A stretch of DNA of 20,893 nt, taken from the NCBI GenBank assembly GCA_029762535.1, contig JARVGK010000045.1, positions 1 to 20,893 on the forward strand. Reading direction: 5' to 3'. Source of the stretch: Thermoplasmatota archaeon. GTDB taxonomy: Archaea > Thermoplasmatota > Penumbrarchaeia > Penumbrarchaeales > Penumbrarchaeaceae. Positions 1,957 through 18,100 of the stretch are shown piece after piece; position 1 is the stretch's first letter; each line of letters starts with the position of its first letter. The notes under the pieces were generated by a model that worked only from the letters and a program-made list of their open reading frames with translations, searched no databases and was not told where the DNA came from. Position numbers and translations under genes: made by a program.

Positions 1957-3738
1957 CTATTTTTTGATGGTGCGGGAGGCGGCATCCATTAATTTGATGG
2001 GGGAATGCATCCCTTCGAAAAGGCCTTTGAAGAAATGGCGGGCATTGCTTCCCAAGGATCTCGTCCTGTATCCTCCCTCCTGCACGACAAGGGTCGGGAC
2101 CCTCAAGGAACCGATCATCCTGCCGTTTCTCTGGAGGTCTGTACCGGTCAGGTCCCATGAACCGGTGGGATCCCCCTTTGTTGTGTCAAGTCCTAGCGCT
2201 ACGACCATATAGTCGGGGGAGAATCTCCGGATCGATCTCAAAGAAGCCCTCAAGGTCTCGGTGTATCTTGAGGTTTCGAGATGCTCGGGGAGGGGATGAT
2301 TGATGTTTAGTCCGATCCCCTTACCCTCACCTGTCTCTTCCTTGAATCCTGTGAAGTAGGGGTAAGCGAATCTAGGGTGGCAGTGGATGGAGATGGTGAG
2401 CACATCATCGCGGTCGTAGAAGATGTCCTGAGTTCCGTTCCCATGATGGTAGTCTATGTCGAGTATCGCCACTCGTCCTTCCTTTGATAACCTGTTTGCG
2501 GATATGGCCGCAGAATTGAAGTAGCAGAAACCTCCAAAATAGTTTTTGCCGGCATGATGCCCCGGAGGCCGTACCAGAGCATACGATAACATGTCCCCTT
2601 TCAGGAGCCGGTCCGCCCCCGTCAGGGCGCAATCCACAGCCCTCCATGCGGCCTGATACGCGTTCGCGTTGAGAGGGGTGAACGTGTCGATGCAGTAATA
2701 GCCAGCCCGGACCAGGAGATCCTTGGGTGCCCTGGCCTGGTTCCTTATCGGGAAGACGTAGGGATAAACGGATTTCCCCTCTGGCAGCTTCCCACAGATG
2801 GTCCTGAGGTAATTGACGAAGTTCCTATCATGGACGGAGGTTATCTCCCTCTCCGGGTGTTTTAGAACCCGGATTTTTTCGAAGAGGCCGCTCTGGTCCA
2901 GCCCTTTTATGATGGAGCGTATCCTCACCGGAGATTCGACGTAACCCCTGTCGTGGACATGGTGTATGTCGTGCTTGTCGTTTATTATCAGGGGGATCCG
3001 GAGGTCCTTGGGAGGACCAGGATCCGGCATGACTGGTTCGTCCGATCTCGTATGTTTGAGCTCCCGGATCCTTACGGGATCGTCTTGAAACGATGACACA
3101 ACGCTCTCAACGTATTCGCGGGGGCAGAGTCCCCGGTATTTCCTCTCCAGAATTGCACGGACTATTTCTCTGGCGTCGCTCTTCCTCAATCGTAACCCCT
3201 TTCCAAGGTCGTCGAACAACAGGTAAGGCGGATTCCTGTCCTGTGGAGTGAGAGGGGTCTCGTATCTCGTGTTGATTATCGGTCTTGCCCCATACCTTTC
3301 GTAGAAACGCAATCTGGAAACGTTATCGATCCTGATATCGGCCTCAGGTTCCGCCTCTGAAGTTTCCTGAAGTGCCTCCAAGAACAGGCCCTTGCACTGG
3401 AGGGAATTCGCCTCTGTTCGGACCCTTTCGTAGAGCGCGCTTCCCGTACCTCGTCCCGCGCGTCCCTTTTTCGTGGCTATGTAATCCAGGTAGCAGAATC
3501 CGAGGTCGGGGAAGTGTAGAAGGATCGCTGCTCCAAGGAGCGACCCAACCTTTCCCTCGGCAACAAAGATGACGGAGCGATATCTCCTGTATAGAGGATC
3601 GCCCAGGACCCGCGGGATCTTAAGGATATTCTCCTCCCTCTCGTCCACGAATCTGTCCCTTACAAGGTCCTGGACCTGTTGCACTGATACCCTGTTGGCC
3701 TGGGTCGTCCTGTCGTGTATCCTTCTTATCCGGAACAT
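1957..3738 (-). CDS. GNAT-type N-acetyltransferase fused to a histone-deacetylase-family (acetylpolyamine amidohydrolase-like) domain
   Basis: N-terminal GNAT: YLDYIAT..GRAGRGTGSALY (acetyl-CoA motif A) and RLRFYERYG. C-terminal HDAC: ESPVR, RPPGHHA, GGFCYFN, LDIDYHHGNGTQDIFY, ALGLDTTKGDP and QEGGY. Confidence 0.9.
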   Translation of the reverse strand: MFRIRRIHDRTTQANRVSVQQVQDLVRDRFVDEREENILKIPRVLGDPLYRRYRSVIFVAEGKVGSLLGAAILLHFPDLGFCYLDYIATKKGRAGRGTGSALYERVRTEANSLQCKGLFLEALQETSEAEPEADIRIDNVSRLRFYERYGARPIINTRYETPLTPQDRNPPYLLFDDLGKGLRLRKSDAREIVRAILERKYRGLCPREYVESVVSSFQDDPVRIRELKHTRSDEPVMPDPGPPKDLRIPLIINDKHDIHHVHDRGYVESPVRIRSIIKGLDQSGLFEKIRVLKHPEREITSVHDRNFVNYLRTICGKLPEGKSVYPYVFPIRNQARAPKDLLVRAGYYCIDTFTPLNANAYQAAWRAVDCALTGADRLLKGDMLSYALVRPPGHHAGKNYFGGFCYFNSAAISANRLSKEGRVAILDIDYHHGNGTQDIFYDRDDVLTISIHCHPRFAYPYFTGFKEETGEGKGIGLNINHPLPEHLETSRYTETLRASLRSIRRFSPDYMVVALGLDTTKGDPTGSWDLTGTDLQRNGRMIGSLRVPTLVVQEGGYRTRSLGSNARHFFKGLFEGMHSPIKLMDAASRTIKK

Positions 3739-4446: not shown

Positions 4447-4833
4447 CTATTTCAAATACCTTTTTACCCATTCAATGAAGATGACGGCCGATCGAAGGGC
4501 TTTTTCAGCGTTTGCCCTCGATATGGCGTCACCCATGTAACCCGCATTGTTCCTTATGGAGAGACATTGCTTCAACCGCTCCCTCTGGGAACCGTCATTG
4601 ATCTTGCGCGTGACATCCAGGTGAAGGTCGAGGGCCTCTCCATGATCGGCGGACCCTCTTCTCTCCAGGTAATAGATAGTGAGAGCGTCGTTGGCATTTA
4701 TCATAGCCTGGATCGCATTGAATGCCGATACATTGAACCTTGAGAGCGCCATATTTTCCCTGGAGGATTCGAGGAATTCCTCTGCCTGATCGAGGTATTT
4801 GATCGCTTTCGATTTGCTCACCGCTTTAACCAT
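4447..4833 (-). CDS. HEPN domain protein (toxin-type partner of MNT)
   Basis: 128 aa, helical. YLDQAEEFLESS, AIQAMINANDAL, DH and the RNNAGY motif. Overlaps the upstream MNT gene. Confidence 0.85.
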   Translation of the reverse strand: MVKAVSKSKAIKYLDQAEEFLESSRENMALSRFNVSAFNAIQAMINANDALTIYYLERRGSADHGEALDLHLDVTRKINDGSQRERLKQCLSIRNNAGYMGDAISRANAEKALRSAVIFIEWVKRYLK

Positions 4834-5402
4834 CCGGGATCACCATAGAGTATTTTGCCTTCATCAAGAGCATTGATTATGAAAGTATCGAATCTGGATA
4901 GGCGATCCAAAACATCATCCATAGAGACACGGATGGTGTTGAGGTGAACTTCATATCTGTGTTCGATCCTGGAAATGGCCTCAAACTCAAATGAGGGGTC
5001 ATAATCTGGTCGGACGATGATAAGTAAATCAATATCTCCGGGCTTTAGAGTGTCCCCTCTGGCCACAGATCCGAAAAGGATGATATTTTCAATATTGTCC
5101 TTACGGACGATCCTAACGAATTCATTTGCCGTATCCCGATACGCGTTAAGCTCTCGAGCGAAGAGTTCCATCATCTCTTTGAACAAAAGGTGATTTCTAT
5201 TCAATTTATATACTCTCGACCTTCCCACTTTCATGCCGAGTAAAATCCGGATATTTTCGAGGCTCTTGATTGCAGGGTGCGCGGACCCCAGGGAGAGACC
5301 GAGATTATCCACGATCTCCTGAAGTGTGTATTCTCTGTCATTGTGTGCGAATAGCCGCAATATCCTGATCTTGACCTTAGAACCAAGGATATTTTCGAGC
5401 AT
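4818..5402 (-). CDS. Winged-HTH + minimal nucleotidyltransferase (MNT) antitoxin
   Basis: N-terminal wHTH (GSKVKIRILRLF...LQEIVDNLGLSLGSAHPAIKSL...VGRSRVYKLN). MNT signature LFGSVARGDTLKPGDIDLL (GS-X10-DxD). Confidence 0.9.
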   Translation of the reverse strand: MLENILGSKVKIRILRLFAHNDREYTLQEIVDNLGLSLGSAHPAIKSLENIRILLGMKVGRSRVYKLNRNHLLFKEMMELFARELNAYRDTANEFVRIVRKDNIENIILFGSVARGDTLKPGDIDLLIIVRPDYDPSFEFEAISRIEHRYEVHLNTIRVSMDDVLDRLSRFDTFIINALDEGKILYGDPGWLKR

Positions 5403-5579: not shown

Positions 5580-5771
5580 ATGGACAGAACTCTAAAGCAG
5601 GTGATCATCATCGTGATCACCCTTGTGGTCTTCATCGCGGTGTTCTGGTTCGCCCTGCCCATGCTGGGGCTGAGGGAGATGCTGGGGGGGGCCTACATCG
5701 TTGTGGCGATAGTGGGAGGGATAATATTGAGCCTCATAATTAGCAGGGTCCTCAACAAGGTCATCAAGTGA
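5580..5771 (+). CDS. Small two-TM membrane protein (63 aa)
   Basis: Two hydrophobic helices with basic termini and GC-rich host-like codons. TATATA lies about 25 nt upstream of the ATG at 5580. Confidence 0.7.
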   Translation: MDRTLKQVIIIVITLVVFIAVFWFALPMLGLREMLGGAYIVVAIVGGIILSLIISRVLNKVIK

Positions 5772-8043
5772 TGCTTGATCCTTGTATAACACCCCGGATC
5801 TCCCGCGCCTTCCCTTTTCCGATCCCTTCGACGGATTGGAGTTCCTCCTCGGAGGCTTTGAATACCCCCTCCAGGCTGCCGAACCTCTCAAGCAGTCTCC
5901 CGGCCAGCACCGAGGAGATCCCCGGCATCGCCGATAGTATGCGGATCCTAGCGTCCGTGGATCCCTCTGCCTTGGGTGAGGGGCTGACCCTTGGCCCTTT
6001 ACCCCTTGAAGCCTCCCTGCGCGCCGTGGCGATTATGAACTCGGCTGTCATAGCCGGATCCCTCGTGAAGAAGATGGGGATCCCGAAATCCAGATTAATG
6101 GAGGAGAGGGCGCCCATCATGGCCTCCCTTGAGATGTTCCTCCTGGTGAAAGGATCGTCGCCCTCGACGACGAGGATAGGCCTATCATACCTCTCCCTCG
6201 ATCTCGATATCTGGTCGAAGAGCCTTCCATCAACGAGTGAATCGGCGAGGTCCTGTGCGGTCTTCCTCTCGATGACGGCACGGTCGGAAACTATGTAATC
6301 GCCCTCTCCCGCTTTCACGGGCCTTGCCCTGGCCCCTTTTCTCACTAGCTCCTCCACGACGGATGAGACCATCTCCCTCTGATCGACGGCGATCTCGAGG
6401 CCATTCTCAACCTTCATCTCCAGGGCCGGAGCGAACGATTCCAGGGTAGCAGGGGAGGGCATCTCCTGCGGACTCCTCTTTTTCAAAGGCTGCCTCGCGA
6501 TCATCTTCCTCAGCGTGATGAGCTGCCTCTCCATCCTCTGCTCCTTGTCCCTGGCCGAGTAGGAGTAGGCGATGTCCCTGGTCTCCTTGGACATCAGGAC
6601 GATGACCTTGCCGGATGCATGCCTTCCCGTCCTTCCCCTGCGCTGTATGGTCCTGATCTCCGAGGGGATCGGCTCGAAGAATATGACGAGGTCCGCGCCC
6701 GGGATGTCGAGCCCCTCCTCGGCGACGGATGTGGCGATCAGGACGTTGAATCTCCCCGACCTGAATTCATCGAGCAGCCCTTTTTGCATCTTCTGGCTCA
6801 GTCCCGAATCCTCGCCCCGGGATGCCTGTCCCACGAACCGTACGGGCTTCAGCCCCTGGTCCTCGAACTGCTTCAATCTCTCCAGGACCGTGCTTGCGGT
6901 GTCCCTGAAATGAGTGAAAACGATGATCCTGGAGGACGGGTCCTCCCTCAGCCCCTGTCTGACATACCGCACCACCGCCTCGACCTTGGGATGCTCCTCG
7001 CCCCTTATCGCCTCGGCCCTGTTGAGGGCGGCGGAGAAGAGAGGGTCCGAGACCACCGCCTTCGTCGCCCTAGAACTGTCGGTGCTGCTCGTCTCCTTGA
7101 TAAGCCTCTCCATGTACTGATAGAGAGAATCCGGACCCTGGGTCTCTGCCAGCTCCATGGCGTGGGACACCTTCATGGCCTGGGCCTGGATAGACATCGC
7201 CTGGTAGTACGCCCCTCCTCTTTCCCCCCGGCGTATGAACTCCTGTATCCTCCCTGCGGCCGAGATGAGCTCCTTGACGGAGGTGTTCTTCCCGGACCGC
7301 AGCACCCCCATCCTCTGCAGCCTCTGTATCCGTTCCAGGTACATCCTCTCGAGCAGCTCGATTATCGCGCGGGTTCCAGGCGACACCTCAACTTTGATCC
7401 ACTGGACGTCTATCTCCTGGATGTAGGGCTTGACGTCCGGGTCGGAATCGATCCTGACCTCGATGTTCTCTATCCCGAGGTTCTGGCATACCTCGTAGAT
7501 CCTCGAGGCGTCATGTCCGGGGGACGCAGTGAGGCCCAGGAGCAGCCCGTCAGGATGCTTCGAGTAGAACTGGTCCGATATGAAAGTGTAGGGATAATCC
7601 CCCGATGCCCTGTGCGCTTCGTCCACAACGAGCGTCCTGAACATGGAGAGGTTCAGATCCCCGGATATGATGTCGTTCTTGATCACCTGGGGTGTGGCGA
7701 CCAGCACCTCCGAACGCTCATAGACGTCCCTGCGTTTTCTGGGCAGGGTCTCCCCCGTCAACATGGTTACGTCGATCCCATTGAGGTTCTCGGTCAGGAA
7801 GGCCCTGTGCTGTTCGACCAATGGTTTGGTGGGGGCGAGCATCAGAATGCCCTTGTTGCCGCGGTGCAGCCTTTCGGCGATGAGGATCAAGGCCACCACG
7901 GTCTTTCCCAATCCCGTGGGCAGCACGACCAGGGTCGGGACCGTCATGGCCTTTACGGCGATCCTGGTCTGATAGTCCCTCCTCCTGAGCTTGCCCTCGG
8001 CTATGAGCGGATGCTCAAGAAAGACCTCGGAAATATCGCTCAC
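5764..8043 (-). CDS. hef: Hef: DEAH helicase + ERCC4/XPF nuclease + HhH (archaeal FANCM homologue)
   Basis: LPTGLGKT, DEAH, LGLTASPG, ATSVAEEGLDIP and QRRGRTGR helicase motifs; VDQRE, GDYIV and ERKTAQD nuclease motifs; VEGIGKGKA HhH. Probable start is the GTG at 8043 (VSDISEVFLEHPLI), not 8304. Confidence 0.93.
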   Translation of the reverse strand: MSDISEVFLEHPLIAEGKLRRRDYQTRIAVKAMTVPTLVVLPTGLGKTVVALILIAERLHRGNKGILMLAPTKPLVEQHRAFLTENLNGIDVTMLTGETLPRKRRDVYERSEVLVATPQVIKNDIISGDLNLSMFRTLVVDEAHRASGDYPYTFISDQFYSKHPDGLLLGLTASPGHDASRIYEVCQNLGIENIEVRIDSDPDVKPYIQEIDVQWIKVEVSPGTRAIIELLERMYLERIQRLQRMGVLRSGKNTSVKELISAAGRIQEFIRRGERGGAYYQAMSIQAQAMKVSHAMELAETQGPDSLYQYMERLIKETSSTDSSRATKAVVSDPLFSAALNRAEAIRGEEHPKVEAVVRYVRQGLREDPSSRIIVFTHFRDTASTVLERLKQFEDQGLKPVRFVGQASRGEDSGLSQKMQKGLLDEFRSGRFNVLIATSVAEEGLDIPGADLVIFFEPIPSEIRTIQRRGRTGRHASGKVIVLMSKETRDIAYSYSARDKEQRMERQLITLRKMIARQPLKKRSPQEMPSPATLESFAPALEMKVENGLEIAVDQREMVSSVVEELVRKGARARPVKAGEGDYIVSDRAVIERKTAQDLADSLVDGRLFDQISRSRERYDRPILVVEGDDPFTRRNISREAMMGALSSINLDFGIPIFFTRDPAMTAEFIIATARREASRGKGPRVSPSPKAEGSTDARIRILSAMPGISSVLAGRLLERFGSLEGVFKASEEELQSVEGIGKGKAREIRGVIQGSSIT

Positions 8044-8065
8044 GGAGGGAGACCGCAACAACCAG

Positions 8066-8072
8066 TATAAAA
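8066..8072. promoter_or_regulatory. TATA element between divergent hef and zinc-ribbon genes
   Basis: TATAAAA on + (TTTTATA on -), the best TATA-like element in a 49-bp gap, about 20-23 nt from both start codons. Confidence 0.55.
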
Positions 8073-8092
8073 CCGTTTTCCGGGAGGGGGAC

Positions 8093-8572
8093 ATGAAAGT
8101 GCCTAACATATCAGCGATAGAGGACATATCCTTGCAGGCCACATCCATTCCCTTAGGTGAAATAATGACCTCGATCGACTGTCTCACCAGGATCTGCGAA
8201 TCCCCCGACGTATCCTGCCCCACATGCAGCAGGAATATGTCGATGTGGGTGTGGAAGGAGAACATCATATACCGCTGCGACGAGTGCAACGCGATCGGTT
8301 TCAAGGTCAGTGATGAGCAGATGAAGGGTTTGGTCGAGAATACAAATCCTTACAGGGGGCGAACCTCGATCGACTGCTCCGAGTGCGGCAAGAGGATGGA
8401 GTTCTCCGTTCTGGACGAATGGATCGTTGCCCGCTGTTCCGACTGCAGGAACATATTCGCTGTTTTCGATGAGAGAAATGAACCCCCGGAGATGGAGGAT
8501 GTGGAAGGCTCCAGGGTCATCTCGGTCCTCAACTGGATAGGCGGAGTTTACGACAGGATGACATCCTTGTGA
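8093..8572 (+). CDS. Double zinc-ribbon protein (159 aa), function unknown
   Basis: Four CxxC motifs (CPTC, CDEC, CSEC, CSDC) in two similar pairs. GGAGGGGG Shine-Dalgarno before the ATG at 8093. Confidence 0.8.
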   Translation: MKVPNISAIEDISLQATSIPLGEIMTSIDCLTRICESPDVSCPTCSRNMSMWVWKENIIYRCDECNAIGFKVSDEQMKGLVENTNPYRGRTSIDCSECGKRMEFSVLDEWIVARCSDCRNIFAVFDERNEPPEMEDVEGSRVISVLNWIGGVYDRMTSL

Positions 8573-8626: not shown

Positions 8627-8634
8627 TTATTATA
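8627..8634 (+). promoter_or_regulatory. Putative TATA box of the 8657-14165 operon
   Basis: TTATTATA about 23 nt upstream of the ATG at 8657. No Shine-Dalgarno site, consistent with a leaderless first gene. Confidence 0.5.
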
Positions 8635-8656: not shown

Positions 8657-9103
8657 ATGAGAGCATGTGATGCGGGATCCATATCTCCTGTCGGAGACCT
8701 TTTCGCCTTCGGCATATGCATCGTCATGGTCTTGTCCCTGTCCAGCCTGGTGCCCCTCCTGGCCGGAGATGGCCCGGGAGATGAAGGACTTCCACCCAGG
8801 ACCCTCTCGGCGTTACTCGCGTGGAGGGGCTGGGACCGCAACGGCGACGGCGTCCTGGAATCGGAGAGCCTCAGGGAGATAGTCCATTTGGATGGATACA
8901 GCTCCCCTTTCGAGGACGATCTCGCAGTTTTCGTAACCTACGCCCAGGAGAGATACGGATTCCAATTCCATGAGGGCTATTGTCGTCCGTTAGAAGGCCA
9001 GGAGGTTTACGGCATCCTCCATTCCCTCTGCGTTTTGGTCGAGGAAAATGGCGAATACCATCCCGGTACGATGACCGTCGGAAGAGGCGGTGGTCCTCGA
9101 TGA
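8657..9103 (+). CDS. Small exported/membrane protein, possibly pilin-like (148 aa)
   Basis: Short leader (MRACDAG) followed by a hydrophobic helix (LFAFGICIVMVLSLSSLVPLL). Contains a DRNGDGVLESE loop. Stop overlaps the next start (ATGA). Confidence 0.7.
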   Translation: MRACDAGSISPVGDLFAFGICIVMVLSLSSLVPLLAGDGPGDEGLPPRTLSALLAWRGWDRNGDGVLESESLREIVHLDGYSSPFEDDLAVFVTYAQERYGFQFHEGYCRPLEGQEVYGILHSLCVLVEENGEYHPGTMTVGRGGGPR

Positions 9104-9588
9104 GGCCCCTTCTCCGGTGCAGGAAGGGCATGGAGACGCCCGTGTCGATGATCTTGTTGATAACTGCCTCGATATTGGCGGCCTCGGTACTCGCACATCA
9201 CATGCCGGAGGAGAAAGGCGAGGACATATACGGCATAAGGCAGGTCCAGGCCAGGTCCGTTGCCCAGACCATACTCCACTACAGGGATCCGGACGGTATG
9301 ATGTTCAAGGACATGATCGAGGAAGACCTTCATCTGATATCCGTGGATGGTAGGGTCGTCTTTCTCGAAGGGACATCGGACGGCAGAACGGACGTCCTGG
9401 CCGCGATCATCGCATCCACTCCCGATGATATGATCGTGTCCGTCCGAATATCATCTGAGGAGAACCCTGCCCCGGGCCTGAGCGGGGAAAGGGTCGCATA
9501 CTCCGCAGCGCTTTCGGAGAAGCTGCATCTCACGGTCACGATCTCCATGCACAGGGGATCGATGTCGTATGGAGGCGAAGACGCATGA
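9100..9588 (+). CDS. Putative type IV pilin-like protein with class III signal peptide (162 aa)
   Basis: The ATG at 9100 overlaps the upstream TGA. Basic leader MRPLLRCRKG followed by hydrophobic METPVSMILLITASILAASVLA. C-terminal beta strand LTVTI. Confidence 0.65.
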   Translation: MRPLLRCRKGMETPVSMILLITASILAASVLAHHMPEEKGEDIYGIRQVQARSVAQTILHYRDPDGMMFKDMIEEDLHLISVDGRVVFLEGTSDGRTDVLAAIIASTPDDMIVSVRISSEENPAPGLSGERVAYSAALSEKLHLTVTISMHRGSMSYGGEDA

Positions 9589-12500
9589 GGCGGCATGGGA
9601 TCGCATATGATACTCGGGGCAAGGAGGCCTTCGCCTATCTTGCGGTGATACTTCTACTTCTCACAACGGCCTCTTTTGTATACTTCCAGCATCTGAACAG
9701 GAGCGTCGATAGCGACCTTAAGAGCGTTCAGGACGTACTTGCCCTATCGGCGAGAGCTGACGACATCTGCCTCGACATCAGGTCCCTGATACTCTCCGAG
9801 CACGATGTTCTGGTCGATTCCGCATCATCATATCTTAAGCCGGGGGACAGGCTCGACGCCGCGGTCGAATCGGCCCTTTACGAGCGGCTCAACTCGACTA
9901 TCAGGGAAAGATCCACCGTCCTCGGGCCCAAAGGATCGGAGTGGGAGTTGGCCCAAATTCAAGTGGAGTGCGTTCCGATCTTTGCCGGGGTCCCGGGGCC
10001 GGTACCTCAGGTCTCCGAGGAGAGCCCGAACGGGACCGGATCCACCTCGATGGCCGACAGATGTGAGGTGATGGGGGTCGACTCCAACATCGAGGCCCTA
10101 CTTCGTTTCTCCTCGATGGACAATTCGGCATCCCTGGAGAGAAAGGTCATAGTGGAGACCTCCCGCCGCTCCCTTGCAAACATGGCCGTTGCGAGAACGG
10201 ACAGGCTTCGTTCGGAGATCGAGGGGGGCGAGATGGACCGCCTGGTGTCCTACATGATAACCACCTATGCCCAGCAGAAGGCCATGCTTGGCTACGGACG
10301 CCCTCCCGAGGACATGGGTGCCGATCACAGAGGTCCGCTTCTGAGAGAGGAGGAGATCGGGCTGATAATGGACCTCGCCGCGGGGATGATATCCGGTACC
10401 CAGCTCCTCGGATACGATGAGGCCTTCATGGACGGCATATCTTCTGAGATCGATGTACTGGAGCTCTCCGACGGCAGGGGGGCGAGCCTCAATGAGACAC
10501 TCTCGGGCGGGGACGACGCGTTCGATCCCTCGACGGTTTTGATGCTCACCACCGGTTTCATGAGCGAAGGGGACCTCCCCAGCGCCGATGAGCTCTTGAG
10601 GCCGATAATAGAGGGCCTCATGGAGCGCCTGGTCGAGAGGCTGCTGTCGTATACGGGGTTAGAGGACATGTACATCGATGGGCTGGGATCGTACTTCCAG
10701 GTGATGGACCTGGCCAACGAGGCCGTATCCTCCGGCCTGGAAACATTGTTGGGATCGAGGCTGGTCGAAGAGGGGTCCCTCACGGCATACGAGATCTTCC
10801 TTCTAATGCTGGAGGAGGGGGGATACGATGTCACAGAGGGGTTCTCGCTGATGAGGAGGTCCCATCCGGCCATCAACGGCGGTAAAGTGGAAGGATACCC
10901 ACTAATCGACATGCCCGACATCGAAGGGACGTTCGAGGTATACGTCAGCGTGGACGATCCGGACCACATCTATTATCTGGATGGCGAGGGTAATTTGCAT
11001 CTCGGGTCCGAGTACAGGACGCCTGAGGACGTTTACGCGGGGCATCTATGCAAGATATACGAGGTGGACGCATCCTTCAGCAGGGCGCCCGCGGAATGCC
11101 CACTGGAGGAGGTCTTTCCCTGGGACGATGATGCTTTCAGGTTCGAGCTTATGCAGGTGCTGTCGGGAGAGATGGACCCCTCCGTCGTATCCGCTTTGAA
11201 CGAGGTCAAGGCCATGGGCCGCCAGGCCCTCATGGCCGCCATGAACAGGACTCTGCAGTTCCTCTCGAGCGAGGAGGATGTATGGGAGGGGATGATAAAA
11301 GGTTGGAACGTTTCGAACCCTCCTTCGATATCCGACGATAGGCCCCCAATCCTCCAGCTGATGAGCATGAACATGGAGGCCATGGAGGGTTTCATGGACC
11401 TTCTGGGGGTCGAACTGGTGTCCCTTTTAAAGGAGATCGGTTACGAACACGGTCTTGGTTCGCTGCAGTATGAACAGGGCAGGGCGCTGGCGGGATGGCT
11501 CAACGAGAGCTATCTTCGCTGGGTCGGGTCCAACGAGCAGATGTCAAGGGCGTTTCATACCAGCATACAGGACTTCCGCGACCTGTGCATGGTCGATGTC
11601 TTCGACATACGTGAGGCAGGCTCCGGGGTCGAGAAGGACAGGAAGATACTCTTCCCGTATGACGGCATAGATGACATCGACGGCATCGCCTCCAACTGGG
11701 CGGGCCTTGCCTACTGGGGTCTGAAGGACTGGGACGAGGATTGGCTGCCGGACAGGGTGGGTGCGGACCTCTCGGTCCGGATCAGGGATGCTGTCGAGGA
11801 GTGCAGGCGCAGGGAGGTGTATCCCGGAGGCGCCGTTTCGAACGCGTTGATCTCCTCCGGGACGAGAGGCGGCCTGCACATCGATCTCACGAAGGTCCCA
11901 TCCCGGCTGCTAGATTGCACATTGGACAGCCTGCTCTCCATGTTCGATGACGTTAGCGCCCCTTATCATCTGACCGGAATGAGGTCCATGCTGCCAAGCG
12001 TCGATCTTTTCAATGGAACGATCCAGCCGTCCGTATGGGAAGGAGAGGGATCGGCGATGCCTCCCTTTGCGCCGCGGACGAAGCTTAAGGTATTCGGCCC
12101 GACGAGCATCGTCATCGGGGGCCGCACCGGCATAAAGGACACGGACGTCAATTCCAACGGGACACCGTACAGGACGTTCTACGAGATATCCCTGGACCGT
12201 TCATATGGTATAACTTATGACCTCAATGGTGATCTCTATCCAAATAACGCCTCCGCCCGGACCATGGCCGCCGTATCGCTGAACATGATCCTGGAGATCG
12301 ACACGGCATGGCCCATGCACGGATGCGAATACGATCCTACAAGGACGCTGAAGGACGATATGATCGACCAATCCGAGGCTGCGTCGAGGGACATACTGTC
12401 GCTTTTGATGGACTCCTCGTCCGGATTGATGGGGGATTCCCTATCCTCCCTGTCGGAGATCCCCCCTCTGGTAATGGACCTGATGAACGGAAAGGACCTG

Positions 12501-14165
12501 GACCTGGGCGAGATCGCCAGGGTGATGACCAACGTCACGCTGGATATCACATCCACCGTAAGGGAGGGGGTCAAGTCCCTTGTGAAGGAATTCGTGGAAG
12601 GAGGGCTCAGCGCCGCCATATTCGCGCTGCTCGATCTTCTGGGCATCGATGCGCTGCATCTGACGCTGCCCGTGGGACCGGCGATCTTCAAGCTCAGCTC
12701 CGAAACGAAGGCTCTCAAGGGCGGGAACGGAAGCATACTGATAGCGAAGGCGGACATACCAGGGATCGGGCTCTCGGCGGTGATGGGGCTCAAGAGGGCG
12801 GGGAACGCGAGCGTGGTGTTCAACGCCACCGTGGAGATCGATAACGGCCCTCTCTATCTGAGGATAGAGCTGGACCCGTTCATGGAGCATCGCTCGAGCA
12901 TATTCACGCTGGAGGGCATCTTCAGGGCTGCGGGTGAGGACATACGCATATCTCTCAAGGCCCCGGAGCTCGTTCAGTACAGGAGCGCGGAGGTTTCGCT
13001 CAAGTCCACGCTGGGGATCGAGCCTTCGGTGTTCATACCTCCGATAGGTGTGTCCGTTTTCTTCAATGCGGGCTTCAGGATCAATTACCTGCAGCCCGAT
13101 GAGCTCGGGCCGAAGATAAACGAGGTCGGGTTTACGGGTGATAACATATCGGACCTGGAACTCTACAATCCTCAAAGGGTCGCCGTGGGCGGATACACTC
13201 TCGAGGTGGGGAACGATCTCGGGATCGCTTTCAGCCACAGGCTCACCTCATCCTCTGAAGCGTTGATACACTTCAGGCTGGGACCGGACACACTCAATTC
13301 CCACCTGTTATCTCTGGATGCCGAAAGCGATTATGTGATCCGGCTCCGGGACGCATCGGGCGAGGTGCTGGATGCCGTCGAGTTGACGGGGGTGAGGAGG
13401 GGATGGTACTCGAGGGACGCGGACGGCTACGGCGTTTTCAGGTGGGGGAATGGCACCCCGGGGGAGACGAACTCGGAGATGGTATTCACCTCCTTCTCCA
13501 TGCTGTTGTTGTCCATCGTAATGGCATCGATAAAGGAGGCGTGGTCCGAGGCCTATGCATTGTATGGGATAAGCTTCGACACGCTGGTGTATTTCATACA
13601 GAGGGCGCTGGACCTCTTCGTGGAGAGGATATGCGGGGCGATCGCCGAGCTCGTCCTTGATGTGAGGATGTTCCTGAGCATGAAGATCGCTCTGGGCGCA
13701 GGGGTTTCCGCAGGGATCGGGTTGGAACTGTCATTCTTAGCGGAAGGGGAGGCCGTGGCGCGTTTCCTCATGTGGGTATACGAGAACATCAAGGTCCTGA
13801 TAGGGAATATATTCCATCCCGAGGGTGCGGGCGATTACGTGGCGTTCCCCATGGAGATCCTGACCATGTGCCACGTGGAGCTGAGGATCTATACCGAGGT
13901 GGATACGCCTCCGGCCCTTTCGAAGATGGCATCTCCCGGCGTCGAGATCCCCTCCACCCTGACCCTGGCCGTCGCCGGGCGTTTCAACATCGCGCTCCCG
14001 ATGAAGCTTTTGGGTAAAGATATCGGGAGCTGGAAAGTGTCTTTGGGCATCTACGTCATGGAGGCTCCGTCCGCTATCGTGTCGATGCTCTACGACGTGA
14101 CATCCCTGGATTGCAAGTATGACCTGTGGCTTCTGAGAGCTTCCGTATGGAGCGAGCCTAAGTGA
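9585..14165 (+). CDS. Very large (1526 aa) pilin-like exported protein containing a lamin-tail domain
   Basis: ATGA-coupled start. Leader MRRHGIAYDTRG followed by hydrophobic AFAYLAVILLLTTASFVYF. LTD-like motifs KINEV...DLELYNP...VGGYTL...IRLRDASGEVLDAV...GTPGETN at about 13110-13475. Confidence 0.8.
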   Translation: MRRHGIAYDTRGKEAFAYLAVILLLLTTASFVYFQHLNRSVDSDLKSVQDVLALSARADDICLDIRSLILSEHDVLVDSASSYLKPGDRLDAAVESALYERLNSTIRERSTVLGPKGSEWELAQIQVECVPIFAGVPGPVPQVSEESPNGTGSTSMADRCEVMGVDSNIEALLRFSSMDNSASLERKVIVETSRRSLANMAVARTDRLRSEIEGGEMDRLVSYMITTYAQQKAMLGYGRPPEDMGADHRGPLLREEEIGLIMDLAAGMISGTQLLGYDEAFMDGISSEIDVLELSDGRGASLNETLSGGDDAFDPSTVLMLTTGFMSEGDLPSADELLRPIIEGLMERLVERLLSYTGLEDMYIDGLGSYFQVMDLANEAVSSGLETLLGSRLVEEGSLTAYEIFLLMLEEGGYDVTEGFSLMRRSHPAINGGKVEGYPLIDMPDIEGTFEVYVSVDDPDHIYYLDGEGNLHLGSEYRTPEDVYAGHLCKIYEVDASFSRAPAECPLEEVFPWDDDAFRFELMQVLSGEMDPSVVSALNEVKAMGRQALMAAMNRTLQFLSSEEDVWEGMIKGWNVSNPPSISDDRPPILQLMSMNMEAMEGFMDLLGVELVSLLKEIGYEHGLGSLQYEQGRALAGWLNESYLRWVGSNEQMSRAFHTSIQDFRDLCMVDVFDIREAGSGVEKDRKILFPYDGIDDIDGIASNWAGLAYWGLKDWDEDWLPDRVGADLSVRIRDAVEECRRREVYPGGAVSNALISSGTRGGLHIDLTKVPSRLLDCTLDSLLSMFDDVSAPYHLTGMRSMLPSVDLFNGTIQPSVWEGEGSAMPPFAPRTKLKVFGPTSIVIGGRTGIKDTDVNSNGTPYRTFYEISLDRSYGITYDLNGDLYPNNASARTMAAVSLNMILEIDTAWPMHGCEYDPTRTLKDDMIDQSEAASRDILSLLMDSSSGLMGDSLSSLSEIPPLVMDLMNGKDLDLGEIARVMTNVTLDITSTVREGVKSLVKEFVEGGLSAAIFALLDLLGIDALHLTLPVGPAIFKLSSETKALKGGNGSILIAKADIPGIGLSAVMGLKRAGNASVVFNATVEIDNGPLYLRIELDPFMEHRSSIFTLEGIFRAAGEDIRISLKAPELVQYRSAEVSLKSTLGIEPSVFIPPIGVSVFFNAGFRINYLQPDELGPKINEVGFTGDNISDLELYNPQRVAVGGYTLEVGNDLGIAFSHRLTSSSEALIHFRLGPDTLNSHLLSLDAESDYVIRLRDASGEVLDAVELTGVRRGWYSRDADGYGVFRWGNGTPGETNSEMVFTSFSMLLLSIVMASIKEAWSEAYALYGISFDTLVYFIQRALDLFVERICGAIAELVLDVRMFLSMKIALGAGVSAGIGLELSFLAEGEAVARFLMWVYENIKVLIGNIFHPEGAGDYVAFPMEILTMCHVELRIYTEVDTPPALSKMASPGVEIPSTLTLAVAGRFNIALPMKLLGKDIGSWKVSLGIYVMEAPSAIVSMLYDVTSLDCKYDLWLLRASVWSEPK

Positions 14166-14940
14166 TGGTCTTTGAAAGGACCATATCCTCTCCTTGAATG
14201 CAGGCTCTCCTCGTGAGCTTGAGGGACCCTCCATTGGGGATCGGTCCCGGATCCCTTCGAATTTCCCACGACGGCGGGAGGGCCACTATCGATCCGCACG
14301 ATCCGGAGAGCGTATTGAAGTCCCAATTGACGAGGACCATCCGCTGGCCCAGGGACCCTCCGTTTTCCATTGTGAATGTGAAGGTCTCATCGAAACCGAT
14401 AGGGGGCAGTCCTCCGTCCGAGATGAACGCTTCGAGCTGTCCTGTGTCCGGGGCGGGACCTTCGGGATGAACGAACGATAATACGCTGGCGTTGACCTCG
14501 ATCCCCTCGACGACGAGCCTCGATGGCGTCCGTATTGAGAAGCCATTTACCATGCCCTTCAGTTCGGCAAGGGATCCCTCCTCCATCGCGGAAGCGGGAG
14601 GGAAAGCGGGTATGATGTCGTTCCTCTTCGTGACGATCTCCCTGCCCCCTTTCCAGTCGATGTAGATGAGGGAGGGGAGGACGTGGATCGTGTAATGCTC
14701 CCCGCCCAGGGTCGGGGAGAATGACAGTGCGCCGTCGGGATCCTCTCCGAAGGAGAGGACGATTCTGGAATTGGATGTCGAGGCAGAGGCGAGAATAGAG
14801 GATAGGTGGGAGGCGAGATCCCGCGCGCTTTTTTCCTCCCGGACCCCTCTCATCGCTAGAAGAGCCCCTGCAAAGACCCCTCCGAGTATCAGCACGCCAA
14901 TTATGAGCCCGATCCTGAATTGGATGTTTCCGATCTCCAT
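14158..14940 (-). CDS. N-terminally anchored membrane protein, possibly pilin-associated (260 aa)
   Basis: TM helix (IGLIIGVLILGGVFAGALL), an amphipathic helix, then SPTLGGEHYTIHV, similar to the P-x-x-[IL]-x-G-x-x-Y-x-I pattern I recall from archaeal pilin-like proteins. Convergent, 8-nt overlap with the 1526-aa gene. Confidence 0.7.
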   Translation of the reverse strand: MEIGNIQFRIGLIIGVLILGGVFAGALLAMRGVREEKSARDLASHLSSILASASTSNSRIVLSFGEDPDGALSFSPTLGGEHYTIHVLPSLIYIDWKGGREIVTKRNDIIPAFPPASAMEEGSLAELKGMVNGFSIRTPSRLVVEGIEVNASVLSFVHPEGPAPDTGQLEAFISDGGLPPIGFDETFTFTMENGGSLGQRMVLVNWDFNTLSGSCGSIVALPPSWEIRRDPGPIPNGGSLKLTRRACIQGEDMVLSKTIT

Positions 14941-15197
14941 CTCCGGAAGGAGGGATCCCCTTGGTTGATAACTTTTTCCTCGTTCTTATTGAAGTAAAAG
15001 AGTAACGGGGGCGCTTTTACACATGTTTACAATATTCTTATATAATCGCAAGAGGCCTGTACTTTCCAATGGGTATGGCAGAGGAGTCCGAAATAGCCCT
15101 ATTATGCGCTTTGATCGGGATATTATTCTCAATGACCCGCATAAGAGAGCTATAGGATATCCTTGGCCAATGATAGAGGGAAAGGAGCTTAGTTAGC

Positions 15198-18100
15198 ATG
15201 GGACGTATGAAAGCCATATCGATCTATATTGCCTCAATTATCTTGTTCTGCCCCCTTGTAGTTATGAACGTGAGCGAATCCGAGGCATGGGGATATAGCT
15301 TCGGGGGCGGATCCGGGACGAAGGGGGATCCCTACATCATCGAAGATGTGTGGGATCTTCAGAACATGAGCAGGGATCTAAGCGCCCACTATGTTCTCGG
15401 GAACGATATCAACGCTTCCGATACGATCAATTGGAACTCCGGGGCGGGATTCGATCCCATTGGGAAGGCAAACTCACCTTTCATTGGAAGCCTTGATGGG
15501 AAGAACCATACCATATCTGGATTATTCATAGATTCTCCAAATACTGACTATTATGGCCTGTTTGGATACACTGGTTCCGGGGCTTCGGTAAAATGCATAA
15601 GTATTGTCGATCAGGTTATTAAAGGGAGCAAATATGTGGGGGCGATTGTTGGATGGAATGAAAAAGGCCTCATATCAGACTGCTTTGTTACTAGAACTAA
15701 GATGGATAAATTTTCTTATCTTGGAGGAATAGTTGGATACAACCTCGAAGGCATAATTTTAAATTGCACTTATCAGGGAATTGTTAAGGGGTATGCATAT
15801 TCCATGGAATCTCATGTTGGTGGTATAGTAGGTAATAATGTCAATGGTATGATCTCAAACTGCAATATGATTGGAAATGTAACCGGAAGTTATTATGTAG
15901 GCGGTATCTTAGGATACAATGATGGTTTTGTCTCAAACTGTAATATGAATGGAAGTGTGAAGGGTAGCCAGTTTGTGGGCGGAATAATTGGAGCCGATGT
16001 TGGTACAATTGAGAATTGCCATTCCTCAGCTATTGTTATAGGATTTAGGAACGTCGGTGGTCTTATCGGATGGAAAAAGGGCACTATGTCCAATTGTTAT
16101 TCGACGGGAAATCTTAATGTAAGCGATAGTTGTGTAGGCGGTCTGATAGGAACTTTAAATCAAGGTATTGTTTCGAACTGTTGGGCAACAGGGAAAGTGT
16201 TCTCTCGCGGATATTATATTGGAGGTTTGGTCGGAAGCAATTATGGTAGACTATCAAACTGTCATTCTTCTTGTAATATTAGCGGATCCAAGGAGGTCGG
16301 CGGATTGGTAGGACGAAACGGAGGAAGGATATCCGACTGCTATTTGATGGGTAGTGTGACCGGAAGCACATCAGTTGGCGGGCTCGTAGGATACAATTAT
16401 GGTAAGTTATCCAACTCGCATTACAACATTGAATCGATATCGATTAACAACGGGATAATCCTCACGATAGGTGGCCTTTTCGAAGATCAATACAAGGATT
16501 GGCTATCCAACGACCTTACTTTAGATATAAACGATTACGAATCTTCGCTGGCATTGTACGATGGATATTATCATATCGATAACATTCAAGGTATCAGAGA
16601 TATGTTGGGATTCTCTGACGTCGAAGGTTATCGGTTCCGTTTCTCTCAAGATATAGATCTATCAAGCGAACCGGGTTTATACCTTCCATATTTTGGAGCA
16701 TCGGAATTGGATGGCAACAATCATACTATAACCAACTTAAGCCTTGATCTTTCATTTGTTTCGAATATTGGTATGGTCGGCTATAATAATCATGGCATAA
16801 TAAAGAACCTCCGAATAATCAATAACAATGTCTCGGGATATGAGAATGTCGGTGGATTGTTAGGATATAACAACAACGGTGATGTATTTAACTGCTATGC
16901 ATCTGGAACCGTTAATAGTATATTTGAGAATACAGGCGGTCTGGTGGGATTAAGCAGTGGTATGATATCTGATTGTTTCACTAATGTAAATATCAGTGGA
17001 ACAGATATTAATATCGGTGGTCTTGCGGGAAAAAACAATGGAAAGATATTCAACTGTCAAATAAAAGCAGACGTTAATGGGACTTTCTCGGTCGGTGGGC
17101 TATTAGGATTAAACGAAGGAATTGTTTCAAATTGCATATTTACAGGTAATGTAAGTGGAACTTCATCAACCATCGGTGGATTGGTGGGTGGTAATCAAGG
17201 GAAAATATCCAACAGCTACGCTAAGGGAAATATTAGTGGAAGATACTCTATAGGAGGACTTGTAGGTTATAATAACATTGAAAATGGAGAAATATCTAAT
17301 TGCAACTCTATGGGGAATGCAGTTGGTGTTATGGCAGTTGGTGGTCTTGTCGGTACCAATGAGGGTTCAGTAGTAATGAGTGTAGCTAAGGGAAATATTA
17401 GCGGAAAAGAGTATGTTGGTGGTTTCGTTGGGAGTCAAGCGGGATCAATATTCAATTGTTATTCAACAGGGAGTGTGACCAGGGTTTCTGGTAATTATAC
17501 CAGCTTTGGAGGATTTGCTGGAATAAATATTAGAAAGATAATAAATTGTTATTCGAGCGGAAGAGTGATTTATGATAATGAAGAGGATCCAAGGGATAAG
17601 GGTTTTGTCGGAAGCGTTAATACAAAAAAAGAATACGAGATGAGAGGGAATTTCTGGGATAATGAGACCAGTCATCAAACGACCACATCCGGTGAAGCTA
17701 TCGGAATGAACACGACCATGATGAAGACGAGGAAAATGTTCACCGATGCGGGTTGGGATCTCAGAAATGTCTGGTGTATGATAGAAAAGGAAACCTATCC
17801 CTTTCTTCGCTGGCAGGATACGAAGACCCCCATCGCAAATGCCGGTCCTGATCTGATCGTTGATGAAGGCACCTTTGTAGTATTTGATGGTAGCGGGAGT
17901 TATGACGATATGGGTATAGCGGATTATTTATGGAGTTTTATCGATAACAAACCTGTTACTTTGTATGGAGTCAAACCTGCGTATCAGTTCAACAATCCTG
18001 GGTTTTTCATAATCACATTAAATGTTCAGGATGCAGTGGATACTTGGGGATCTGATACGATGAGAGTTACTGTTTTGGACATATCCCCGCCATCAGCGAA

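Follow-up and report, generated by a model that had tools for sequence, protein, structure and literature searches.

Bacterial modular type IV pilins, among them PilB and PilC of Streptococcus sanguinis, CofB/TcpB, and ComZ, join a small carrier to large modules and putatively sit at the filament tip; GspK has been given as an example of the same concept (PMC8179133). In archaea, large proteins encoded in type IV filament loci have been proposed to act as adhesins or minor pilins (PMC4858521; PMC13705601). Neither of these two surveys of archaeal type IV pili describes giant proteins with a lamin-tail domain (LTD) or the family DUF7286, and we found no mention of DUF7284-DUF7289 in the literature searched. 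Here, we analyse a cluster of four genes (g1 to g4) in a stretch of 20,893 bp, hereafter the window, which is a complete contig (C42) of a 2.96-Mb Thermoplasmatota genome that is 93% complete. The cluster is a conserved operon whose products are extracellular and anchored at the N-terminus. The largest of them, g3 (the giant), belongs with high confidence, as judged by its sequence, to an uncharacterised family of LTD giants whose N-terminal module is also that of DUF7286. Our tentative reading, which we rate as somewhat short of probable, is that g3 is a giant modular pilin-like adhesin that acts with small pilin-like partners as the priming or tip complex of a filament.

The layout of the cluster had been proposed from the DNA letters alone (hereafter the original prediction), and the open reading frames (ORFs) and their overlaps bear it out. 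Three genes follow one another on the forward strand: g1 (8657-9103, 148 residues), g2 (9100-9588, 162 residues counted from its ATG), and g3 (9585-14165, 1526 residues). Stop and start codons overlap in ATGA at 9100-9103 (g1/g2) and at 9585-9588 (g2/g3), and the three genes are translationally coupled. The fourth ORF, g4 (14158-14940, 260 residues, also anchored), lies on the reverse strand, is convergent with g3, and shares 8 bp with its 3' end (14158-14165). A TATA-like box, TTATTATA, read directly in the sequence at 8627-8634 on the forward strand, 26 nt upstream of the g1 start, is probably the promoter from which g1-g2-g3 are transcribed with a short leader or none, given the geometry of archaeal promoters. 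Domain searches over the 20.9-kb window found no pilus ATPase, no TadC/platform protein, and no prepilin peptidase, as the original prediction had stated. The searches of Pfam and NCBIfam with the four cluster proteins returned no match, and a search of the ESM Atlas with g3 and g4 gave no usable one.

Full-length relatives of g3 are present in 22 of the 23 genomes of the same taxonomic family, where they are 32-36% identical to it overall and about 41% across the last 680 residues. The g1-g2-g3 order is kept in nine sister-genus loci (tblastn). Because the giant is so widespread in the family and the three genes are syntenic there, we regard the conservation of the cluster as far above chance. 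Co-occurrence of the genes in other genomes, on which the original prediction was staked, is thus seen at two scales: g1-g2-g3 within the family, and g3 next to g4 in distant genomes. Weaker relatives of 1400-2050 residues occur within the same order, class, and phylum. An exhaustive search with a hidden Markov model (HMM) of g3 residues 400-1526 retrieved 524 representative clusters at E <= 1e-3, 196 of them at E <= 1e-30, whereas a word-index search had given 3 relatives and strongly understates the family. Most members have 1300-1400 residues, with the last ~700 in common. All those that are named come from Thermoplasmatota, Methanomethylophilaceae included, and their database names are "lamin tail domain-containing protein", "Ig-like domain-containing protein" or "hypothetical". 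The A5 alignment gives a tally of 118 of the 151 genomes of the phylum, but matches to the LTD alone inflate this figure, and we do not take it for the size of the family.

The architecture of g3 consists of an N-terminal anchor/pilin-like module, a helical domain, a variable middle, and a conserved C-terminal part of ~700 residues that includes the LTD. The N-terminal module (residues 1-290; 9585-10454, forward strand) is supported by profile comparison and by an AlphaFold2 (AF2) model. It opens with a leader ending in D-T-R-G, followed by a helix (residues 10-82), a second helix (90-110), three strands of ~24 residues each (118-195), and the start of the helical domain. In the model of residues 1-420 (predicted local distance difference test [pLDDT] 86), a continuous helix of 73 residues packs on a three-stranded sheet. 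The alignment by hhalign of 119 N-termini of the g3 superfamily with 35 N-termini of DUF7286 (99.3%, E 6e-21, 269 columns) identifies the first ~280 residues of g3 as homologous to the N-terminus of DUF7286 (PF23957). Past residue ~300 we found no similarity between the two, including in the C-terminal region of DUF7286 (profile positions 894-998). The Pfam model of DUF7286 matches neither g3 nor any other protein of the genome at a cut-off as lax as E <= 10; distant giants weakly match its positions 2-29 and 2-60.

The original prediction pointed to uncharacterised haloarchaeal four-gene clusters of small pilin-like genes plus a large one starting with RG-RVPFA. The large family does exist, as DUF7286, which scores above the cut-off in the control genomes of Haloferax volcanii and Methanosarcina acetivorans and is the N-terminal homologue of the giant just described. 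A scan of the genome contigs for DUF7286 loci returned Thermoplasmatota and Methanoperedens, and no haloarchaea; a tblastn search with a DUF7286 protein found no match in plasmids. The small genes of the DUF7286 clusters are not related to those of this locus: comparisons by hhalign of g1, g2, and g4 with DUF7284, with the ~160- and ~205-residue genes of the DUF7286 clusters, and with the genome's own pilins gave nothing significant.

The C-terminal putative effector region of g3 (residues ~830-1526; 12072-14162, forward strand) is the best-conserved part of the protein and is common to the relatives of 1300-1400 residues. Within it, the Ig-like LTD spans residues 1174-1290 (13104-13454, forward strand) and is diverged in sequence, so that PF00932 has no match in the window's own g3 at E <= 1. 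At the aligned position, full-length relatives exceed the PF00932 gathering score of 34.3 bits (P0050 with 46.8, P0064 with 44.9, and P0094 with 57.3 bits), and 3 of 10 closer homologues have sub-threshold matches. The alignment keeps the LTD signature I-N-E ... E-L-Y-N-P ... R-x-x-D-G ... T-P-G-x-x-N. We modelled residues 780-1526 with AF2 (pLDDT 83, and above 90 over most of the region; predicted template-modelling score 0.73) and compared the model with 48,161 PDB representatives using VIA-align. The top match is the Ig-like domain of lamin B1 (7dtg_A; Z 8.1, root-mean-square deviation [rmsd] 2.5 A), which spans 92 residues (g3 1174-1269). The Pfam scores of the relatives and the predicted fold together indicate that g3 carries a real LTD, as had been proposed, even if the window protein itself falls below detection. 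The region as a whole is modelled as a long-stranded beta-sheet, four long helices, beta-sandwiches, the LTD, and a terminal alpha/beta domain; outside the LTD it matches nothing credible in PDB or BFVD, in searches that can miss single domains of large models. The same genome encodes a second giant LTD-bearing frame of 2078 residues outside the window (contig C91:95012-95362), with counterparts of 2034-2108 residues in sister genera; it resembles g3 in the LTD only.

The first part of the 73-residue helix is the only membrane segment of g3, and the remaining ~1200 residues are extracellular. Hydrophobic stretches near residues 1003, 1298, and 1368 were considered as further membrane segments and rejected, since in the model they are buried helices or strands of globular domains. 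We counted 16 N-x-S/T sequons in the protein, where shuffled sequences have 5.5 +/- 2.2, and this excess fits an extracellular glycoprotein. Some relatives have extra domains, inserted or appended: Peptidase_C39_2, PKD and Big_5 repeats, or a transglutaminase-elicitor domain (L031:9342-15290 on the reverse strand, P0108, P0131). Judged by such domain assignments, the variable inserts of the family are adhesin-like or peptidase-like.

The N-termini are the best-conserved parts of the small proteins. In g1, a 7-residue leader with a conserved Gly precedes a single hydrophobic helix and an extracellular domain, and the orthologues begin with M-R-x-x-D-V-G-[AS]-x-S-P-x-G-D-L-L-A-F. Residues 60-65 (window positions 8834-8851) form a DxDxDG EF-hand-like loop that is invariant across all orthologues; the family profile retrieves the EF-hand loops of calmodulin (E 0.002), and the loop is likely a calcium site. 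The leader of g2 ends at an invariant G10, followed by invariant E12, T13, and S16 (G-[MI]-E-T-x-x-S in the orthologues), a hydrophobic helix, and a C-terminal domain of ~120 residues bearing an invariant T-P-D. We detected no relatives of g1 or g2 outside their own taxonomic family, and the sequence profiles of g2 and g4 have no match in PDB. A resemblance noticed by eye between V-S-P-V in g1 and G-V-S-P-V in pilins was discarded, as it reaches just E 0.065 across 8 residues. Between hef and g1 there is also an ORF of 83 residues with a CxxC...CxxC zinc ribbon (8321-8572, forward strand). It was rejected as a fifth member of the cluster because tblastn found no relative in homologous loci or in the rest of the genome; small Cys-rich ORFs occupy its position in two sister loci.

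The convergent gene g4 is more widely distributed. Its product starts with an R-x-G-L-[IL] motif (R-x-G-L-I in the window protein) and a hydrophobic helix, and its profile (A8) has matches in 34 of the 151 genomes of the phylum. It directly adjoins the giant in 13 further genomes and lies elsewhere in the genome in others; in G029 it adjoins a second giant with a DUF7286-like N-terminus. Together with this last case, g4 stands beside a giant in at least 8 taxonomic families. The homologues next to distant giants are recovered by hhalign at 91.8% (L028_7), 70.8%, and 62.6% (the loci include L053_3 and L027_6). According to these profile matches, g4 is a conserved, phylum-wide partner of the giant.

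All four proteins begin with a short charged leader, whose last residue is a conserved Gly, and continue with ~20 or more hydrophobic residues. The leaders of g1, g2, and g3 (CDAG, CRKG, and DTRG) each stand just before the hydrophobic stretch, as had been noted, and their Gly is kept in the sister-genus orthologues. The leader of g3 is cytoplasmic and positively charged. The original prediction took these N-termini for class III (prepilin) signals, of which the order of leader, Gly, and helix holds in all four proteins and the canonical motif does not. FlaFind 1.2 defines this motif as [KRDE][GA][ALIFQMVED][ILMVTAS] directly ahead of a hydrophobic stretch (PMC4307647). Tested as a regular expression, it matches none of g1, g2, and g4 or their orthologues, and it matches g3 and six of its orthologues only at an atypical E-A|F-A site. 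The sister-genus orthologues of g3 read G-[KR]-E-A-F-A-Y-L, that is, the residue after the Gly is K or R, which FlaFind disallows. Moreover, 23 of 108 full-length relatives of g3 (P0043, P0044, P0050, and 20 others) are annotated from M-P-F-A, without a leader, which could stem from an error in gene calling or mean that these proteins truly have none.

These observations weigh against a pilin-like complex and favour its main rival, in which the four proteins form a surface complex that is anchored in the membrane and stays out of filaments altogether. Their N-terminal helices would then be uncleaved (type II) signal anchors, the conserved Gly motif would serve helix packing or insertion instead of cleavage, and the giant would be an envelope spike or adhesin with g1, g2, and g4 as small anchored accessory subunits. 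We consider this a credible account, only a little less likely than the pilin-like one. It fits less well with the conservation of the motif at the scale of the superfamily. The 108 full-length relatives have [KR]-[GA]-x-[MV]-[PS]-F-[AS] before the helix, with the G/A nearly universal; this keeping of [KR]-[GA] right before the helix extends throughout the superfamily, and 26 leader-bearing relatives fit FlaFind exactly (e.g., K-G-Q-M-P-F-A). The DUF7286 clusters of other Thermoplasmatota also include several small FlaFind-fitting genes, of the R-G-[IVA]-[SLT] type. Furthermore, the FlaFind rule discriminates poorly in this organism, because only one of the four genes for its canonical xG|VSPV pilins (xG|VSPVIAVILMV) passes the regular expression, as read by eye. 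A Tat signal was rejected as another explanation of the leaders, since the twin arginine is not consistent.

The machinery that a filament would need is encoded elsewhere in the genome: a Peptidase_A24 protein on contig C14, which carries an archaeal C-terminal extension and scores over the Pfam cut-off (28.6 bits), as well as five T2SSE ATPases, of which at least four adjoin a multi-pass membrane partner. The lack of genetic linkage to this machinery speaks for the anchored surface complex. There is no type IV ATPase or TadC in the retrieved flanks of any g3 locus, and 2 of 68 DUF7286 loci have a type IV ATPase within 9 kb. The 1330-residue giants of the Methanomethylophilaceae type are solitary, without small partners, and one 99%-complete genome of this type has the giant and no detectable T2SSE ATPase. 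The size of g3 points in the same direction, as it is about twice the 860 residues that PMC8179133 gives for the largest modular pilin. On the other side, a PibD homologue is retained in five out of five genomes of the Methanomethylophilaceae type. In a separate locus (L004:3079-3720, contig C80), a gene that adjoins an ATPase/TadC pair joins a canonical pilin-type N-terminus (..K-A-G-V-S-P-V-I..) with a PBP_like_2 solute-binding domain, which matches the bindosome-type arrangement described in PMC13705601.

The predicted structure of the N-terminal module bears on both accounts. The packing of the long helix on a sheet resembles pilins and speaks against the anchored complex. The top 30 VIA-align matches of the N-terminal model, out of 48,161 chains, include GspK (Z 6.3), PilA5 (5.8), PilX (5.7), and EpsI (5.5), values that fall inside the range that the tool states to be unreliable or noise. 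The pilins are also outscored by the tail sheath of a phage (Z 8.1) and by a lysozyme of the gp25-like kind (Z 7.6), and Foldseek gave no credible match in PDB for either g3 model. The scores thus count against the pilin-like complex and leave the anchored one with a further point in its favour; the AF2 model is compatible with a pilin-like fold. Of the pilin fold that the original prediction would call for, the helix on the sheet is present in the model, and the structural matches to pilins do not reach beyond noise.

The phage sheath and the gp25-like lysozyme head the VIA-align matches of the N-terminal model, and AT-rich, foreign-looking DNA begins just downstream of the cluster, at ~15000. 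Both would fit an origin of the cluster from a virus or mobile element, as its remnant or as one of its modules, e.g., one encoding a tail-like or fusion-like protein. The rest of the evidence speaks against such an origin, which we deem extremely unlikely. The GC content of the cluster is 56-59%, equal to that of hef and of the core genes. The locus has chromosomal synteny with hef, msrB, and an FMN reductase across genera, and the giant is nearly ubiquitous in its family. A Foldseek search of BFVD with the C-terminal model gave no credible viral match (template-modelling score <= 0.12), and we found no integrase or capsid gene in the window.

The original prediction also suggested, as speculation, a role in DNA uptake or cell-cell contact from the LTD and the neighbouring hef gene (5764-8304, reverse strand; DEAD, Helicase_C, ERCC4, and HhH domains in Pfam), which is divergent from the cluster. 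In DNA uptake, the LTD would bind extracellular DNA and the subunits would form a competence pseudopilus. In favour of this role, hef is divergently adjacent to the cluster here and also in four sister genomes, and LTDs are known in archaeal extracellular nucleases and ComA-like proteins (PMC5118699). The adjacency is limited to these close relatives: a genus within the taxonomic family has lost it, and none of the distant loci shows it. The window has no domain of a nuclease, of ComEC, or of DprA, and the inserts of the relatives, being adhesin- or peptidase-like, include no nucleic-acid domains. The study of LTD proteins itself proposes membrane association for the domain, not DNA binding (PMC5118699). 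A DNA-uptake role linked to hef is therefore not supported, and we judge it very unlikely.

In the pilin-like reading that we tentatively prefer, the leaders of the four proteins would be cut by the PibD-like prepilin peptidase of the genome, and their hydrophobic N-terminal helices would bundle together. At low abundance, this bundle would prime a type IV filament or form its tip, and the filament would be assembled in trans by one of five ATPase/TadC pairs whose genes lie at other sites in the genome. The complex would display the LTD-containing C-terminal region of the giant as an adhesive or ligand-binding head. Parallels to such an assembly would be GspK-GspI-GspJ or, among the modular pilins of bacteria, PilB and CofB. 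The minor-pilin or tip complex with a very large subunit in the original prediction is in this way partly supported, by the gene layout, the partners, and the N-terminal module, and not by the strict motif or by linkage to an ATPase.

A broader proposal, which we regard as rather unlikely, is that the LTD giants (1300-2000 residues) and the DUF7286 proteins make up a hitherto overlooked superfamily of archaeal giant modular pilins with one common N-terminal carrier module, encoded apart from the assembly ATPases. Their role would be either to cap type IV filaments or to mediate contact between cells or with a host as a stand-alone surface machine, also in the Methanomethylophilaceae of the human gut. 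If the pilin-like reading holds, the modular-pilin principle of a small carrier presenting grafted effector domains would be extended to archaea at an extreme size. It would also provide a first functional handle on DUF7286 and on a protein family present in most of the Thermoplasmatota lineages sampled. The family includes gut methanogens (Methanomethylophilaceae), where colonisation depends in part on surface adhesins. Accessory subunits of archaeal filaments could then lie far from the machinery, and censuses based on loci would miss them. If the proteins are instead an anchored surface complex, this would still be a conserved and unstudied envelope complex, of interest in this phylum. Many lineages of Thermoplasmatota lack a cell wall.

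The rest of the window encodes other functions. On the reverse strand, a HEPN protein (4447-4833) overlaps a protein with helix-turn-helix and nucleotidyltransferase domains (4818-5402), and the pair (4447-5402) looks by its domains like a HEPN/MNT toxin-antitoxin. A protein of 593 residues (1957-3738, reverse strand) joins a GNAT acetyltransferase and a histone-deacetylase-family domain, directly upstream of a gene for an MscS-type channel (985-1926). From 15000 to 20893, the GC content falls sharply from 56-59% to 40-43%. This low-GC stretch encodes a surface protein of 1355 residues with GLUG, PKD, and CarboxypepD_reg domains (15198-19265), and a protein of 420 residues with an N-terminal helix and no match to a known family.

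Among the known systems, the DUF7286/DUF7284 clusters of Haloferax, Methanosarcina, Methanoperedens, and many Thermoplasmatota are related to the giant by the ~280 N-terminal residues, which are homologous to those of g3 and share with them the [KR]-G-x-[VM]-P-F-A motif before a hydrophobic helix. In both cases, a large extracellular protein follows small genes with N-terminal helices, usually without linkage to ATPases. The DUF7286 proteins differ in being shorter (~900-1200 residues) and in lacking an LTD, and their neighbours (DUF7284, a ~160-residue S-E-E-F-T gene, and a ~205-residue signal-peptide gene) are unrelated to g1, g2, and g4. The large proteins of archaeal type IV loci proposed as adhesins or minor pilins (PMC4858521; PMC13705601) resemble g3 in their class III-like or signal-peptide start and in being accompanied by several small pilin-like genes. 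However, their loci include an ATPase and a platform protein, which the g3 cluster and its relatives do not. Other prokaryotic LTD proteins, such as the haloarchaeal Hvo_1477 and ComA-like proteins, are likewise extracellular, membrane-tethered, and LTD-bearing (PMC5118699). They are lipoproteins with nuclease or metallo-beta-lactamase domains, whereas g3 has neither, and its LTD is one domain inside a non-enzymatic architecture of 1526 residues.

The pseudopilus tip of the type II secretion system, GspK-GspI-GspJ (PDB 3ci0), also has one large subunit with a helical domain and co-encoded small partners, and GspK is the best pilin-class match to the N-terminal model of g3 (rmsd 2.9 A over 95 residues, at the Z of 6.3 that lies in the noise range). 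There is no sequence relationship between the two, the alpha-domain of GspK is inserted whereas the helical domain of g3 follows the sheet, and the g3 locus lacks a secretion ATPase. The comparison with modular pilins is similarly two-sided. The giant is archaeal, its family reaches 1300-2000 residues against up to 860, its class III motif is atypical, its pilin fold is weakly supported by the model, and its place in a filament is one that we infer. Yet the non-pilus modules are clear in the g3 family (the LTD and the PKD, C39, and transglutaminase inserts), and its members swap adhesin-type inserts behind the N-terminal module, as modular pilins do.

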